Source of the DNA: a virus
Lineage: Duplodnaviria; Heunggongvirae; Uroviricota; Caudoviricetes
DNA: 6,192 nt
IMG/VR virus record: IMGVR_UViG_2534681649_000007
Strand: one strand, 5' to 3'
Positions 1 to 6,192 of this stretch are shown here, one piece after another. The stretch's first letter is position 1; each line of letters starts with the position of its first letter. Made by a program: the position numbers and the translations under genes. Under the pieces are notes generated by a model, which saw only the letters and a program-made list of their open reading frames with translations, did not search any database and had not been told where the DNA came from.

Positions 1-131
1 ACCCAGTTGTAATAACCGATCCTGGATACACCAAATACCTGACACATCGCTTCAATGGGAAATTGTTGTCGCCATTGTTCGATTAACGCGTATTTTTCAG
101 CGACTCCTGTGCAAAATACGCTGTTGCTTTT
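1..131 (-). CDS. IS600-like transposase OrfB frame, N-terminal portion (partial, continues beyond window)
   Basis: Open frame on minus strand from the TAA at 132-134 down to window start. Same frame as the orfB part of the fused ORF in copy 2 (SNSVFCTGVAEKYALIEQW...). One nonsynonymous difference versus copy 2 (Ile versus Ser, codon at 18-20). Confidence 0.6.
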
Positions 132-384
132 TTAATATATCTCGCTCAAGGCGAGCTTCATTTAACGCCTTACGCAGTTGCAGAATTTCAGATTCCAGTT
201 CAGCCACCGTGCGGGAACCAGGAGTACCGAGCCCTTTTCTGGCGGCGGTAACCCATTGTCCTAAAGTGCCTTCAGGAAGGGATAATCGGGAAGCGCCTTC
301 ACTGATCGAAAGTTGATTTTCAAGAACCGTTCTGACAGCTTCGGCTTTGAACTCTTTAGAGTAACGTTGGTTTTTTCTGCTCAT
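97..384 (-). CDS. IS600-like OrfA (HTH transposase regulatory protein), 95 aa with non-canonical C-terminus
   Basis: ATG at 384, stop TGA at 97-99. Translation MSRKNQRYSKEFKAEAVRTVLENQLSISEGASRLSL... is a typical IS3-family OrfA. The A-run at 127-132 on plus (6 T) is one short of the length that would give the conserved OrfA end KKATAYFAQESLKNTR, so the product here ends KKQQRILHRSR. Confidence 0.8.
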   Translation of the reverse strand: MSRKNQRYSKEFKAEAVRTVLENQLSISEGASRLSLPEGTLGQWVTAARKGLGTPGSRTVAELESEILQLRKALNEARLERDILKKQQRILHRSR

Positions 385-445
385 TATTAGCTCCTTCTGA
401 TGCCATTCTATTTCAGGAAGGAGTGTCCGTTAAACTCAGGCTACC

Positions 446-637
446 TCAATCTTCTCTTATTTTGAAATACAGATTCGTCAGATAAGTCAGAAGCCCCAGA
501 AGCAGACTTCCCAGCACACCAATCGCAGCCCACTGTGATGGACTGACCTGATCCAACCACTGCAAAAACCAGTAGCCGGCACTGCCGGCGGAGGTGCCGT
601 AGGCAATGCCCGTTGAAATTTTGTCCATGGATTTCAT
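446..637 (-). CDS. Phage class II holin (phage 21 S / Stx-phage S-like), C-terminal tail truncated by IS insertion
   Basis: 63-aa product [28 protein letters not shown]...[11 protein letters not shown] with the dual-start motif M-K-S-M and two hydrophobic segments. Strong SD GGAGGTGA (RC of 641-648) upstream of ATG at 635-637. The stop codon TGA (446-448) is the terminal TGA of the IS600-like inverted repeat, so the native charged C-terminal tail is replaced. Confidence 0.8.
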
Positions 638-797
638 AGCCTCACCTCCGCAAATAACGGATGGCGTAGTTTTACACTGAGAAATGAAAGGGATTTGAAA
701 AGAAAAAAACGCAAAAGCGGGCGAAACGATATATACAGTAAGGAAAGCACTCTATCCAACAAACCACCCACAGTTAATCGGAATAAAAGCAGAGTGC

Positions 798-870
798 TTA
801 TGAATGATCGCACGCCCGAAGGTTAGTATTTCTGCACAGCAATTTTGCAAAAAAAGGCGATCATTCATAA
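798..870. repeat. 14-bp perfect inverted repeat (TTATGAATGATCGC / GCGATCATTCATAA) with 45-nt spacer, in the tRNA-holin intergenic region
   Basis: Arms at 798-811 and 857-870 are exact reverse complements. Read directly from the sequence. Confidence 0.6.
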
Positions 871-877
871 CTTAAAC

Positions 878-923
878 GTCTTTCAGTCACTCCGGGATTT
901 CCCATCATCGCAGACTGAAAGAC
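878..923 (-). repeat. 11-bp inverted repeat (GTCTTTCAGTC / GACTGAAAGAC) immediately 3' of the tRNA cluster; possible processing or terminator hairpin
   Basis: Arms at 878-888 and 913-923 with a 24-nt loop containing the palindrome GGGAAATCCC. Lies 7 nt downstream of the tRNA-Gly 3' end on the minus strand. No strong U-run follows, so terminator function is uncertain. Confidence 0.3.
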
Positions 924-929
924 TCTGAC

Positions 930-1004
<75 letters not shown>

Positions 1005-1007
1005 ATA

Positions 1008-1083
<76 letters not shown>

Positions 1084-1085
1084 GC

Positions 1086-1162
1086 TGGCCCACCACCGAG
1101 GACTCGAACCTCGCACCGTCAACTTAGAAGGTTGATGCTCTATCCGGATGAGCTAGTGGTGG
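1086..1162 (-). tRNA. tRNA-Arg (anticodon UCU; decodes rare AGA/AGG)
   Basis: Minus-strand sequence CCACCACTAGCTCATCCGGATAGAGCATCAACCTTCTAAGTTGACGGTGCGAGGTTCGAGTCCTCGGTGGTGGGCCA. Acceptor CCACCAC/GTGGTGG with unusual C1:G72, anticodon stem TCAAC/GTTGA, loop CTTCTAA, T-arm CGAGG-TTCGAGT-CCTCG, encoded CCA. Confidence 0.8.
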
Positions 1163-1163
1163 T

Positions 1164-1240
1164 TGGTGGCCCTTGCTGGACTTGAACCAGCGACCTGGCG
1201 ATTATGAGTCGCTCGCTCTGACCAACTGAGCTAAAGGGCC
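1164..1240 (-). tRNA. tRNA with CAT anticodon, ileX-like (likely tRNA-Ile2 lysidine type reading AUA; elongator Met not excluded)
   Basis: Minus-strand sequence GGCCCTTTAGCTCAGTTGGTCAGAGCGAGCGACTCATAATCGCCAGGTCGCTGGTTCAAGTCCAGCAAGGGCCACCA. Anticodon loop CTCATAA. Acceptor and T-arm closely resemble E. coli ileX as recalled. Confidence 0.8.
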
Positions 1241-1249
1241 GGAGGCAGA

Positions 1250-1278
1250 ATAATAACCATATGTCATCACATCTGCAA
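1250..1278 (-). promoter_or_regulatory. Candidate sigma70 promoter for the tRNA cluster
   Basis: On minus strand: -35 TTGCAG (1278-1273), 17-nt spacer, -10 TATTAT (1255-1250), ending about 10 nt upstream of the first tRNA 5' end at 1240. Pattern match only. Confidence 0.3.
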
Positions 1279-1328
1279 ACTCATCTGACCACCAGCACGT
1301 TTAACGTCCTGTGCCGTTTTTCAGGTAT

Positions 1329-1352
1329 AAAAAAACCCGCATAAAGCGGGCT
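1329..1352 (-). terminator. Rho-independent terminator-like hairpin (candidate lambdoid tR'-type late terminator)
   Basis: All-GC 5-bp stem CCCGC (1336-1340) / GCGGG (1346-1350) with loop ATAAA. On the minus strand it is followed by UUUUUUU (RC of A-run 1329-1335). Lies between the IS911 end and the tRNA promoter. Confidence 0.5.
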
Positions 1353-1377
1353 CTTTCAAATGCCCATGTGAAGTGGT

Positions 1378-1521
1378 CAACAAAAACTGGCCACCGAGTT
1401 AGAGTTTTTCCAGTATCGATTTTCCGATTCGTTTGGGGGTAACCCACCGTTATATTCGTGCGGTCTTAGTGCGCTGTAATATCCAACGATATAGTCCGTT
1501 ATGGCGTGAGCTGCCTCGCTG
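1378..1521 (-). pseudogene. IS911 orfB 3' fragment, separated from the rest of orfB by the IS1 insertion
   Basis: Minus-strand translation continues the OrfB frame: ...AHAITDYIVGYYSALRPHEYNGGLPPNESENRYWKNSNSVASFC, stop TGA at 1378-1380 inside the IRR. Confidence 0.8.
1513..1521. repeat. 9-bp target-site duplication (GCCTCGCTG), left copy, for IS1
   Basis: Identical 9-mer immediately flanks both IS1 ends (1513-1521 and 2290-2298). Confidence 0.9.
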
Positions 1522-1770
1522 GGTAATGCTGCCAACTTACTGATTTAGTGTATGATGGTGATTTTAAGGTGCTTGCGTGGCTTCCATTTCCATCAGATGT
1601 CCTTCCTGCTCCGCTACTGAAGGCGTGGTGCGTAACGGCAAAAGCACTGCCGGACATCAGCGCTATCTCTGCTCTCATTGCCGTAAAACATGGCAACTAC
1701 AGTTCACTTACACTGCCTCTCAGCCCGGTACGCACCAGAAAATCATTGATATGGCCATGAATGGCGTCGG

Positions 1771-3352
<1,582 letters not shown>

Positions 3353-3396
3353 ATCACCTCTGTTCAGGTGGCCAAATTCAGTGTGCCACTTCAGGT

Positions 3397-3466: not shown

Positions 3467-3889
3467 TCAATGCACAACGACAGAATCGTCGGACGACCCA
3501 CCACCGCTGAAATGTGCTTTCCGGTAAACGGCCTGAACTGCGTCATCATGCGCATCAATTGCCGTACTCAACGCTTCCTGCGCCGCCAGTAATGCACGGC
3601 GTTCCAGGGTATCGAAGATACAGAGTCGGTGACGCAGCTCACGCGGAAGAATTGCCAGAACCGCAGGGATCAGTTTCTGAATTTTCTCCCTTTGCGCTTT
3701 CGTTTCACCTTTCAACCAACGGTGATAGATATTCTGCTGATTGTTCCAGTCCTTGCCTGGTACCAGAGGCAATTCGCCGCCCCCCTGCCGCAGATATTCT
3801 TCAGTAATTGCGTTAGCGACCCACGCCTGCCCTTTTTCGGCTGCCAGGGCTAACAGCACTGATTCGATGTGCTCATGCCTGATTTTCAT
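3467..3889 (-). CDS. YdaT-like prophage protein (occupies the cII position downstream of the cro-like gene)
   Basis: 140-aa ORF MKIRHEHIESVLLALAAEKGQAWVANAITEEYLRQGGGELPLVPGKDWNNQQNIYHRWLKGETKAQREKIQKLIPAVL.... SD GAAGGTGA upstream of the ATG at 3887-3889. The start overlaps the dicC-like 3' end by 17 nt. Family assignment is from recalled similarity to Rac/CP-933P YdaT. Confidence 0.55.
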   Translation of the reverse strand: MKIRHEHIESVLLALAAEKGQAWVANAITEEYLRQGGGELPLVPGKDWNNQQNIYHRWLKGETKAQREKIQKLIPAVLAILPRELRHRLCIFDTLERRALLAAQEALSTAIDAHDDAVQAVYRKAHFSGGGSSDDSVVVH

Positions 3890-4100
3890 GAATCACCTTC
3901 CCAGGTCGTTTTGCCTTACGATATTCGTCATAAACTTTGGGGTCGTACTGAAGTTCCCCGCCAGATGCCTCTTGCAGGCGCATCGCGCGGCCTTCAGGAA
4001 CCAGTTCCCCCCATGCAGCAATGCTTGCCAGCCTAACTCCTGCGGCATTGGCAAGCTTTGTTTTGCTGCCAAAAAACGCTATAGCATCAATTTTCAACAT
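3873..4100 (-). CDS. dicC: DicC-like Cro-type small regulator
   Basis: 75-aa product MLKIDAIAFFGSKTKLANAAGVRLASIAAWGELVPEGRAMRLQEASGGELQYDPKVYDEYRKAKRPGKVIHENQA closely resembles E. coli Qin DicC as recalled. SD AAGGAG 7 nt upstream. Divergent from the dicA-like gene. Confidence 0.8.
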   Translation of the reverse strand: MLKIDAIAFFGSKTKLANAAGVRLASIAAWGELVPEGRAMRLQEASGGELQYDPKVYDEYRKAKRPGKVIHENQA

Positions 4101-4176
4101 ATCGAGCTCCTTAGATTTTCCTAAGGAAACTAGATCGTAGAGAAACCTAAGTCAAGAAAGATTAGAATTCCCTAAT
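4101..4176. promoter_or_regulatory. Divergent promoter/operator region between dicC-like and dicA-like genes with repeated TTAG-N6-CTAA palindromes
   Basis: TTAGATTTTCCTAA (4111-4124) and TTAGAATTCCCTAA (4162-4175, ending 1 nt before the dicA ATG), plus related CCTAAG/CTTAGG half-site-like motifs at 4120-4126 and 4145-4150. Layout is analogous to cI/cro operators. Confidence 0.5.
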
Positions 4177-4584
4177 ATGAAAAACGAAACCTTCGGTGCT
4201 CGCCTCTTACATAGGCGTAAAAAATTAAAACTGTCTCAGGCCGCATTAGGTAAGCTGGTCAAAGTGGCTCACGTAACAATTTCTCAATGGGAAAGAGATG
4301 AAACACAGCCGGCGGGGAAAAGATTATTCGCACTGAGCCAAGCGCTTCAGTGCTCACCGACTTGGCTTCTTTTTGGGGATGAAGATAAACAACCAGGCGA
4401 ACCGATCCCGGATAATCAGCCAGCCATTCTGACAGAAGATCAAAAAGAGTTACTTCAACTGTTCGACGCACTGCCTGAGTCAGAGCAAAAGGCCCTGTTG
4501 TCAGAGATGCGTGCTCGAGTTGAAAATTTCAACAAACTTTTTGAAGAACTACTCAAAGCTCGCAAAAGAAGCGCAAACAAATAA
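4177..4584 (+). CDS. dicA: DicA-like HTH (XRE-family) repressor
   Basis: 135-aa product MKNETFGARLLHRRKKLKLSQAALGKLVKVAHVTISQWERDETQPAGKRLFALSQALQCSPTWLLFGDEDKQP...PESEQKALLSEMRARVENFNKLFEELLKARKRS. Shares the HTH_3 N-terminal domain and the conserved C-terminal blocks of E. coli DicA as recalled. Confidence 0.85.
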   Translation: MKNETFGARLLHRRKKLKLSQAALGKLVKVAHVTISQWERDETQPAGKRLFALSQALQCSPTWLLFGDEDKQPGEPIPDNQPAILTEDQKELLQLFDALPESEQKALLSEMRARVENFNKLFEELLKARKRSANK

Positions 4585-4649
4585 TCCCCTTTTTTCTCCA
4601 CACCCTGTAATAAAAAGCACAAACTTTCAAACACTTGTGTTTTTTACAT

Positions 4650-4728
4650 CAAAAAAACTTAGGTTTTTATACATAAAATCTTGACTCCACGTCTTAGGTT
4701 ATTCTAAATTTCATTCATCAAGACACCG
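4650..4728 (+). promoter_or_regulatory. Candidate promoter/operator region upstream of the ydfA-like gene
   Basis: Possible -35 TTGACT (4673-4678) and -10 TAAATT (4697-4702) with 18-nt spacer. Two CTTAGGTT motifs (4650-4657, 4685-4692) resemble the half-sites in the dicA-dicC operator region. Small palindrome ACACCGCACGGTGT at 4715-4728. A weak hairpin plus T-run at about 4610-4640 may terminate dicA. Confidence 0.3.
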
Positions 4729-4786
4729 CACGGTGTTCTCAGCAAACAGTTCCACTACCCCGGCGTTAAGGGGAAATGAGGTCAGC

Positions 4787-4939
4787 ATGGATACTATCGA
4801 TCTTGGCAACAACGAATCCCTAGTGTGTGGCGTGTTTCCCAATCAGGACGGCACATTCACCGCCATGACGTATACCAAAAGCAAAACGTTTAAAACCGAA
4901 GCTGGCGCACGTCGCTGGCTTGCCAAAAATACCAGCTAA
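4787..4939 (+). CDS. ydfA: YdfA/YdaF-like small prophage protein (DUF-type, function unknown)
   Basis: 50-aa product MDTIDLGNNESLVCGVFPNQDGTFTAMTYTKSKTFKTEAGARRWLAKNTS from the ATG at 4787, preceded by GAGGT. It follows the dicA-like gene as ydfA does in Qin. The longer tracked ORF start at 4733 has no RBS. Confidence 0.7.
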   Translation: MDTIDLGNNESLVCGVFPNQDGTFTAMTYTKSKTFKTEAGARRWLAKNTS

Positions 4940-4983: not shown

Positions 4984-6149
4984 TGAGGTGTACTGGCAAT
5001 AGCGGACACTACCATTTGTTCTTTTTTTAAGCAGCCATCTGATGATATTTTTCCCTGAAGGCTGCCGGGGAGATATTCCCCAGACGAGAGTGACGACGCT
5101 GACGATTGTAGAAAATCTCAATGTATTCCCGTATTACTGAGATGGCTTCATCCCGGTTATTAAAACGATAGTGGCTCAGGCTCTCATTTTTCAGCGTTCC
5201 CCAGAAGCTTTCCATCGGAGCGTTGTCGTAACAGTGACCTTTACGCGACATTGATGTTTTCAGACCAGACTGCTCCTGTATGACCCGGTAATCGTATGCG
5301 CAGTACTGTGAACCTCGATCAGAGTGGTGGATTAGCCCGGCAGGTGGGCGCTGGCTCCTGAGCGCCATAAACAGGGCTTTACCTGTCAGCTCTTTTGTCA
5401 TGCGCTCTCCCATGGCGTAGCCGACAATTTCGCACGTATAAACATCTTTGATGCCAGCGAGGTACAACCATCCCTCCTGTGTGGCAACATACGTCAGGTC
5501 CGCCACCCAGACCTGATTTGGTGCTGTAGGAGCGAACGTCTGGTTCAGCAGATTTGGCGCAACTGGCAGATTGTGGTTCGGGTTCGTAGTCGCTCTGAAC
5601 TTGCGTTTCTGCTTACAGCGTAGCCTTAGCTCCTTACGAAGACGTGCCAGTCGGTCACGACCAACGATGATGCCATTCTCTGCCAGCTCCGTCTGGAGCC
5701 GCCGGGTTCCATATGTTTCGCGAGTGCGGATATGTGCCACCTTAATCTCCAGTTTTAGCCGCTCATCACTTTGTTTTCTGTCTGAGGGTTCATGCTGTAC
5801 CCAGTTGTAATAACCGCTCCTGGATACACCAAATACCTGACACATCGCTTCAATGGGAAATTGTTGTCGCCATTGTTCGATTAACGCGTATTTTTCAGCG
5901 ACTCCTGTGCAAAATACGCTGTTGCTTTTTTTTAATATATCTCGCTCAAGGCGAGCTTCATTTAACGCCTTACGCAGTTGCAGAATTTCAGATTCCAGTT
6001 CAGCCACCGTGCGGGAACCAGGAGTACCGAGCCCTTTTCTGGCGGCGGTAACCCATTGTCCTAAAGTGCCTTCAGGAAGGGATAATCGGGAAGCGCCTTC
6101 ACTGATCGAAAGTTGATTTTCAAGAACCGTTCTGACAGCTTCGGCTTTG
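4984..6149 (-). mobile_element. IS600-like IS3-family element, copy 2, missing its IRL-proximal ~99 bp (replaced by IS1 end)
   Basis: IRR TGAGGTGTACTGGCAATAGCGGACACTACC at 4984. Sequence is collinear with copy 1 up to 6149, where the IS1 terminus begins. Same minus orientation as copy 1. Confidence 0.85.
5027..6149 (-). CDS. IS600-like orfA-orfB in-frame fusion (OrfAB transposase-like), N-terminally truncated by IS1
   Basis: A single ORF spans both frames because the A-tract has 8 A (T-run 5926-5933 on plus) instead of 6 in copy 1. Translation ...ERDILKK-SNSVFCTGVAEKYALIEQW... with DDE-type motifs VWVADLTY, HSDRGSQY, DNAPMESFW. The only in-frame start is a TTG inside the IS1 terminus (6161-6163). 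Confidence 0.7.
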
Positions 6150-6192
6150 GGTAATGCTGCCAACTTACTGATAGTGTTTTATGTTCAGATAA
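6150..6192 (-). mobile_element. IS1 copy 2, terminal fragment at window edge (insB-proximal end), inverted relative to IS1 copy 1
   Basis: GGTAATGCTGCCAACTTACTGATAGTGTTTTATGTTCAGATAA is the reverse complement of an IS1 right end including the insB 3' codons (...LNIKHYQ stop). The element continues beyond the window. Confidence 0.85.

Follow-up and report, generated by a model that had tools for sequence, protein, structure and literature searches.

Truncation by IS600 of a phage 21-type pinholin gene in a lambdoid prophage of Shigella, very probably through ordinary insertion-sequence decay

The window, a stretch of 6,192 nucleotides analysed as a whole, carries a 63-aa open reading frame of the phage 21 S holin family (class II holin, or pinholin) at 446..637 on the minus strand, between an IS600 end on its 3′ side and a tRNA cluster, IS911 and a set of immunity genes on its 5′ side. 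The features are as follows, in window positions.

1..448, minus strand: left 448 bp of IS600 (left inverted repeat, orfA and the start of orfB), cut by the window edge; from alignments
384..97, minus strand: IS600 orfA, with an A6 run in place of A7 at the frameshift site; from the window ORF listing and the sequence
446..637, minus strand: pinholin ORF of class II (phage 21 S-type), truncated to 63 codons and a stop; intact alleles have 71 codons
448..446, minus strand: stop codon TGA, formed by bases 1-3 of the left inverted repeat of IS600; from the sequence and alignments
449, minus strand: final base of phage origin, at the third position of codon 63; T (GAT) in the window, as against C (GAC) in the E. 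coli allele, a synonymous difference
626..637, minus strand: dual-start motif ATG AAA TCC ATG (MKSM), the same as in phage 21, whose record annotates both starts
640..649, minus strand: Shine-Dalgarno-like GGAGGTGAGG 5′ of the first ATG, read from the sequence; the phage 21 ribosome-binding site is annotated at the equivalent place
930..1240, minus strand: prophage tRNA cluster just 5′ of the holin gene (CAT anticodon, Arg-TCT, Thr-TGT, Gly-TCC); ARAGORN, RefSeq and Rfam
1328..1358, minus strand: terminator-like hairpin and U-run between IS911 and the tRNA cluster; folding, -23.2 kcal/mol, z -3.6
1369..3395, minus strand: IS911 (IS3 family), ending at ~3395, occupying the place of the genes for anti-repressor and Q-like antiterminator and of all else as far as ydaT
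1522..2289: IS1 nested in IS911 orfB, with 23-bp inverted ends; from the sequence
3467..3889, minus strand: YdaT-like gene; profile match
3873..4100, minus strand: P22 Cro-like gene; profile match
4177..4584, plus strand: divergent cI-type HTH repressor gene; profile match
4733..4939, plus strand: DUF1391 gene; profile match

The 63-aa ORF matches the Pfam family PF04971 ‘Bacteriophage P21 holin S’ with 114.7 bits (cut-off 26, E = 1.8e-33) over profile positions 1-59 of 64, leaving positions 60-64 unmatched, and it also matches PHROG holin families with E-values of about 1e-29. Its first residues, MKSMDK, are the same as in phage 21, and M1 and M4 are predicted from the sequence to be the S71-type antiholin start and the S68-type holin start, respectively. 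The hydropathy maximum of the product falls at residues 34-51, and the hydrophobicity of TMD1 is weak, in keeping with the SAR type; the two transmembrane segments of the class (SAR-type TMD1 and TMD2) are thus both present. Both hydrophobic segments, the dual start and the Shine-Dalgarno sequence GGAGGTGAGG match those of the intact E. coli allele, so that the initial annotation, which had described these elements as retained, was correct on this point. What the product does not have is the full length of the family (~71 aa with a basic C-terminal cytoplasmic tail), as it ends after 63 residues with the tail KIRED instead of KIREDKRKAARGE. The lysis-cassette context, with a SAR endolysin and spanins on the 3′ side and drive from Q and pR′, is likewise missing, with IS600 on the 3′ side, no endolysin or Rz gene within 10 kb in eight related chromosomes, and IS911 where the Q-like gene would be.

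Up to codon 63 the window aligns collinearly with three intact alleles, those of phage 21, of phage PhiR47_1 and of the E. coli FDAARGOS_944 prophage. Past this codon the intact alleles continue with K/R-RKAARGE and a stop (71 aa), while the window reads TGAGGTAGCCTGAGTTTAACGGACAC..., and the DNA homology to the intact alleles breaks exactly at window 449/450. Over 450..1300, a segment that takes in the tRNAs, the spacer and codons 1-62 of the holin gene, the window shows 100% DNA identity to the E. coli prophage allele; residues 1-63 of the product are identical to the intact E. coli protein and 97% identical to S21. Only the final eight residues (KRKAARGE) are missing, and the membrane-proximal KIRED is kept. 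The cytoplasmic tail had been described earlier as replaced, which needs correction, since eight residues were removed and none were added. Codon 63 itself is GAT in the window and GAC in all three intact alleles examined. Some lambda-hybrid phages, whose match runs one base further, appear to have GAT as well, as this longer match suggests, and the codon could be a long-standing polymorphism or else have arisen as a side effect of the IS event.

The phage 21 record provides the reference anatomy: Q, pR′, a terminator and tRNAs on the 5′ side, a dual-start gene for the S21-71 antiholin and S21-68 pinholin, and a SAR endolysin with i- and o-spanins on the 3′ side. The window gene shares with S21 the MKSM dual start, the SAR-like TMD1, the pore-lining TMD2 and a place past a tRNA cluster within a lambdoid late region. 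It differs in that the product is without the last 8 of ~13 cytoplasmic tail residues, with a tail charge of 2+/2- instead of 6+/3-, and in that the gene is without SAR endolysin and spanins 3′ and without Q and pR′ 5′. The product also carries V46L and F49L, as does the intact E. coli allele. The latter (WP_000839570.1, ‘class II holin family protein’) has eight more codons than the window ORF, and in its prophage a ydfR-like gene, a lysozyme gene and Rz follow the holin gene, which is preceded by anti-repressor and Q-like genes.

To place the end of the ORF within the wider family, the 71-aa intact protein was used as a tblastn query against 50,697 phage records. It matched 438 records, with at least 80% of the query covered in 433 of them, and in a sample of 40 rows taken down the ranking residues 1-71 are covered by the first 38, with only the two weakest falling short. 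Since the phage homologues cover residues 1-71, the window ORF is truncated; homologues that naturally end at this position, which the initial annotation had named as the finding that would speak against truncation, are not what the phage records contain.

Eight complete Shigella chromosomes encode the exact 63-aa protein, and 10 kb on each side of it were examined in each (20-kb loci L003-L010). Over the shared part of the window they are 99.4-99.9% identical to it, the best match being CP026731 with 99.92% identity over 6149 of 6192 bases. The holin-IS600 junction and the 63-aa product are the same as in the window in all eight. One may ask whether faulty assembly or sequencing produced the junction as a chimera at a repeated IS, given that IS600 is highly repeated and that A-runs of 6, 7 or 8 among its copies hint at homopolymer errors in some assemblies. 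The eight chromosomes were, however, assembled independently and include CP000036, which we take to be S. boydii Sb227. The protein is moreover found on 83 contigs and has an NCBI nr entry, ‘MULTISPECIES: phage holin [Shigella]’. With the same product and junction in eight of eight chromosomes and the protein on 83 contigs, an artefact is exceedingly improbable.

The complete IS600 of the related loci measures 1264 bp and is 99.8-99.9% identical to copies annotated as ‘IS3-like element IS600 family transposase’, with the ends TGAGGTAG... and ...CACCTCA (TGAGGT...ACCTCA); the window itself has the first 448 bp only. Two other IS600 copies in these loci begin with the same TGAGG straight after their target duplications, and these starts, together with the element ends, set the IS600 boundary at window 448. 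The PF04971 match, the alignments and the TGA at 448..446 all uphold the central claim of the initial annotation, an S21-type holin gene clipped by IS600 with the IS terminus as its stop codon. The left end of the element, TGAGGTAGCCTGA (441-448, minus strand), has a stop codon in every reading frame inside its first 14 nt (frame 0, TGA; frame 1, TGA; frame 2, TAG), so that any gene entering there is closed within four codons. The in-frame stop of the holin gene, which had been put forward as a noteworthy feature, is therefore unremarkable.

The IS600 copies differ in the length of the A-run at the frameshift site. The copy at the holin gene has A6 (window ~140-147), as do the same copies in four of the eight related loci, the other four having A7. 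With A6 the element encodes a 95-aa orfA with an aberrant C-terminus, compared with the canonical A7 run and its -1 frameshifting between orfA and orfB, while A8 in the second copy (window ~5940-5947) fuses orfA and orfB into a single ORF of 378 aa. These differences are either true slippage alleles or homopolymer sequencing errors. In the second copy, at 4984..6149 on the minus strand, an IS1 end at 6150..6192 has taken the place of the left inverted repeat and of the first ~12 codons of orfA. This IS1 insertion was not seen in the eight related chromosomes, whose homology to the window stops at 6149, and the event is thus strain-specific.

Beyond the far end of IS600, the related chromosomes do not return to the holin gene. 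In five of the eight loci (L003, L004, L005, L008 and L009) the far end adjoins TGATGGACTG..., in a tail-assembly and tape-measure region, and in L007 and L010 it adjoins GGCAGACC..., beside ydaE. These two groups are separated by an inversion between two oppositely oriented IS600 copies (at ~2.0-3.2 kb and 10.2-11.5 kb of each locus), which exchanges the right flanks TGATGGACTG and GGCAGACCATC. The remaining locus, L006 (Sb227), has another IS3-family element interrupting the holin-side IS600 copy, and no right IS600 end was found 3′ of its holin gene within the 10-kb flank. In L003 (11450-11610) the last A of IS600 and the flanking TG form an ATG that opens a 51-aa ORF (MDCVQFVPDPKK...) in the tail-assembly region; this ORF at the right junction is called as a gene in some assemblies.

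A 3-bp target duplication was looked for at the holin IS600 copy in the related loci, and none was present: the left flank reads GAT, the right flank TGA or GGC. Each of the two neighbouring IS600 copies, on the other hand, is bordered by a 3-bp duplication (CTA or GGC). The lack of a duplication at the holin copy indicates an IS-mediated deletion or rearrangement and not a simple insertion. The ydfR-like gene, the lysozyme gene and Rz of the intact E. coli prophage gave no blastn or tblastn match in the eight 20-kb loci; this absence covers 10 kb on each side of the locus, and the cassette could have been relocated elsewhere. An unrelated far flank, together with the lack of lysis genes within 10 kb, means that the endolysin and spanin genes were deleted from this position and not displaced. 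The initial annotation had them displaced by at least the 1.26 kb of the IS and had proposed to look for endolysin and Rz genes beyond it. In the related genomes they are absent within 10 kb and there is no target duplication; past IS600 lie tail genes or ydaE instead. The loss of the lysis genes was most likely caused by recombination between two IS600 copies or by an IS-mediated adjacent deletion.

Because the window ends inside the IS, we infer the far flank in its own genome from the eight related chromosomes. This leaves room for a simple IS600 insertion, in which the remainder of the holin gene and the genes for endolysin and spanins would still lie directly beyond the 1.26-kb element. 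IS600 copies nearby do show 3-bp duplications, as such an insertion would leave, and the window stops inside IS600, with its own far flank outside. The complete chromosomes that share the junction, however, have unrelated DNA at the far end without a duplication, and no lysis genes within 10 kb in any of the eight. As one of them matches the window with 99.9% identity over 6149 of 6192 bases, we regard a simple insertion as very unlikely.

On the 5′ side, the intact E. coli prophage has the order Q-like antiterminator (phrog_753, E = 5e-79), anti-repressor, four tRNAs, holin, ydfR-like gene, endolysin and Rz, and the homology of the window to it spans 450..1369 only. With no more than this part of the prophage kept, the Q-like gene and the interval expected for pR′ are gone; the position of pR′ in this lineage would be that suggested by analogy with phage 21. 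The loss of Q upstream, which the initial annotation had asserted, is thereby confirmed for the Q-like antiterminator region, in whose place stands IS911 with IS1. The former is annotated as IS911 in plasmid records, and it forms the upstream deletion boundary of the prophage late region. Farther upstream, the immunity region (3467-4939) survives between IS elements.

The four-tRNA cluster at 930-1240 is intact and identical to the E. coli prophage cluster. Its CAT-anticodon tRNA is called Met by ARAGORN and Ile in RefSeq, and it is presumably of the lysidine-modified Ile2 type. An Rfam scan of the whole window returned the four tRNAs only, with no structured RNA in the spacer between the tRNAs and the holin gene. 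The hairpin at 1328..1358, absent from the list of a simple terminator scan and confirmed by folding, would oppose read-through from IS911. The only hit of that scan lies inside the holin ORF (1 found, 1.1 expected) and is probably due to chance. A promoter-like site, TTTGCA-18-TATTAT (1279..1250, minus strand; 9/12 matches in a promoter scan), lies just 5′ of the tRNA cluster and could allow some transcription of the holin gene. The promoter scan showed no promoter-like site between the tRNAs and the holin gene, and the fragment is probably poorly transcribed.

If made, the product can be compared with engineered truncations of the S21-68 pinholin. When S21-68 was shortened residue by residue from its C-terminus, the latter proved ‘largely dispensable for assembly’; truncations down to K56 were still pore-forming, and only the truncation to K56 altered the behaviour, as this residue anchors the helix at the membrane interface (bioRxiv 10.1101/2021.04.20.440580). 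The window product corresponds to S68 residues 1-60 and, in this numbering, ends at D60 with K56 kept, which makes pore competence probable. It thus falls within the tested series (S21-56 and the one-residue series) as a residue-60 truncation. The comparison differs in two respects, since the engineered forms were expressed from an inducible plasmid promoter whereas the window allele is chromosomal, and since the tested allele was not the one with L43 and L46 (S68 numbering) of the window product. The truncation shifts the tail from KIREDKRKAARGE (6 basic, 3 acidic residues) to KIRED (2 basic, 2 acidic). The 63-aa fragment retains all that is known to be required for a pinhole. By analogy with the engineered series, it is probably pore-competent and would probably depolarise the membrane if made; the membrane activity considered possible in the initial annotation agrees with the pore-forming C-terminal truncations of S21-68 (bioRxiv 10.1101/2021.04.20.440580).

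The exact 63-aa protein is recorded in 92 blocks of the sequence collection, 23 of which have contigs >1 Mb. The holin-IS600 junction occurs in none of 5,426 complete E. coli genomes. The complete identity of 450..1300 to E. coli alleles indicates that the event is recent, and for the same reason the intactness of the fragment is uninformative on selection.

These observations bear on the question of whether the 63-aa form represents a holin that is short by nature, or else a domesticated and selected toxin or antiholin-type gene of Shigella. A natural short variant is rejected, as homologues among the phage records span residues 1-71 and the ORF terminates in IS600 DNA and not in phage DNA. 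For the reading as a whole one may cite the ORF, starts and Shine-Dalgarno sequence, intact in all genomes read, the occurrence of the protein on 83 contigs, the promoter-like site and intact tRNA genes upstream, and the pore formation by truncated S21 (bioRxiv 10.1101/2021.04.20.440580). Set against these are flanking DNA that has not diverged at all from the intact E. coli allele (100% identity), leaving no time for selection to show, the absence of the junction from the 5,426 complete E. coli genomes, and a prophage riddled with IS600, IS911 and IS1, as neutral decay predicts. We therefore consider this reading, taken as a whole, quite unlikely. Its more specific form, in which lineages of the S. 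boydii type would retain the tail-less pinholin and produce small amounts of it, for example through the promoter-like site ahead of the tRNAs, as a host-controlled membrane-depolarising toxin acting, for instance, in stress-induced dormancy or abortive infection, is a long shot. Were it true, the lower charge of the tail could shift the triggering time.

The locus is very probably the product of ordinary IS decay of a heavily eroded lambdoid prophage in a Shigella boydii-type chromosome, that is, of an IS600 truncation followed by a deletion, leaving a recent neutral remnant. In the proposed course of events, IS600 would have inserted right after codon 63 of the phage 21-type pinholin gene, its terminal TGA closing the frame at the cost of KRKAARGE. 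A later event mediated by IS600, either an adjacent deletion or recombination between this copy and a second one, would have taken out the remainder of the holin gene together with the ydfR-like gene and the genes for endolysin, spanins, head and terminase, so that the far end of IS600 came to abut tail genes or, following the IS600-IS600 inversion, ydaE. IS911, itself hit by IS1, would have replaced the upstream Q-like antiterminator, the region where the late promoter is presumed to have been. The 63-aa product would then have no endolysin to serve, and neither a late promoter nor an antiterminator to drive its expression.

Shigella chromosomes carry hundreds of copies of IS1, IS600, IS911 and IS2, which interrupt and delete genes. 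The present case resembles such IS-driven decay in the nesting of IS600, IS911 and IS1 in and around the prophage, in the deletion without target duplication and in the IS600 inversion that separates strains, and it does not differ in kind from other IS-driven pseudogenisation in Shigella. It is already known in kind, as routine IS-driven prophage decay in this genus, and the sequence is already in public databases. For annotation, the ORF would be better flagged as an IS600-truncated class II holin remnant of a defective prophage than as a functional ‘phage holin’. Two general points follow from the locus: the left end of IS600 stops any incoming frame within four codons, and an absent target-site duplication exposes an IS-mediated deletion as opposed to a simple insertion. 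If the fragment is expressed, it would represent a natural counterpart of the engineered tail-less S21 pinholins.
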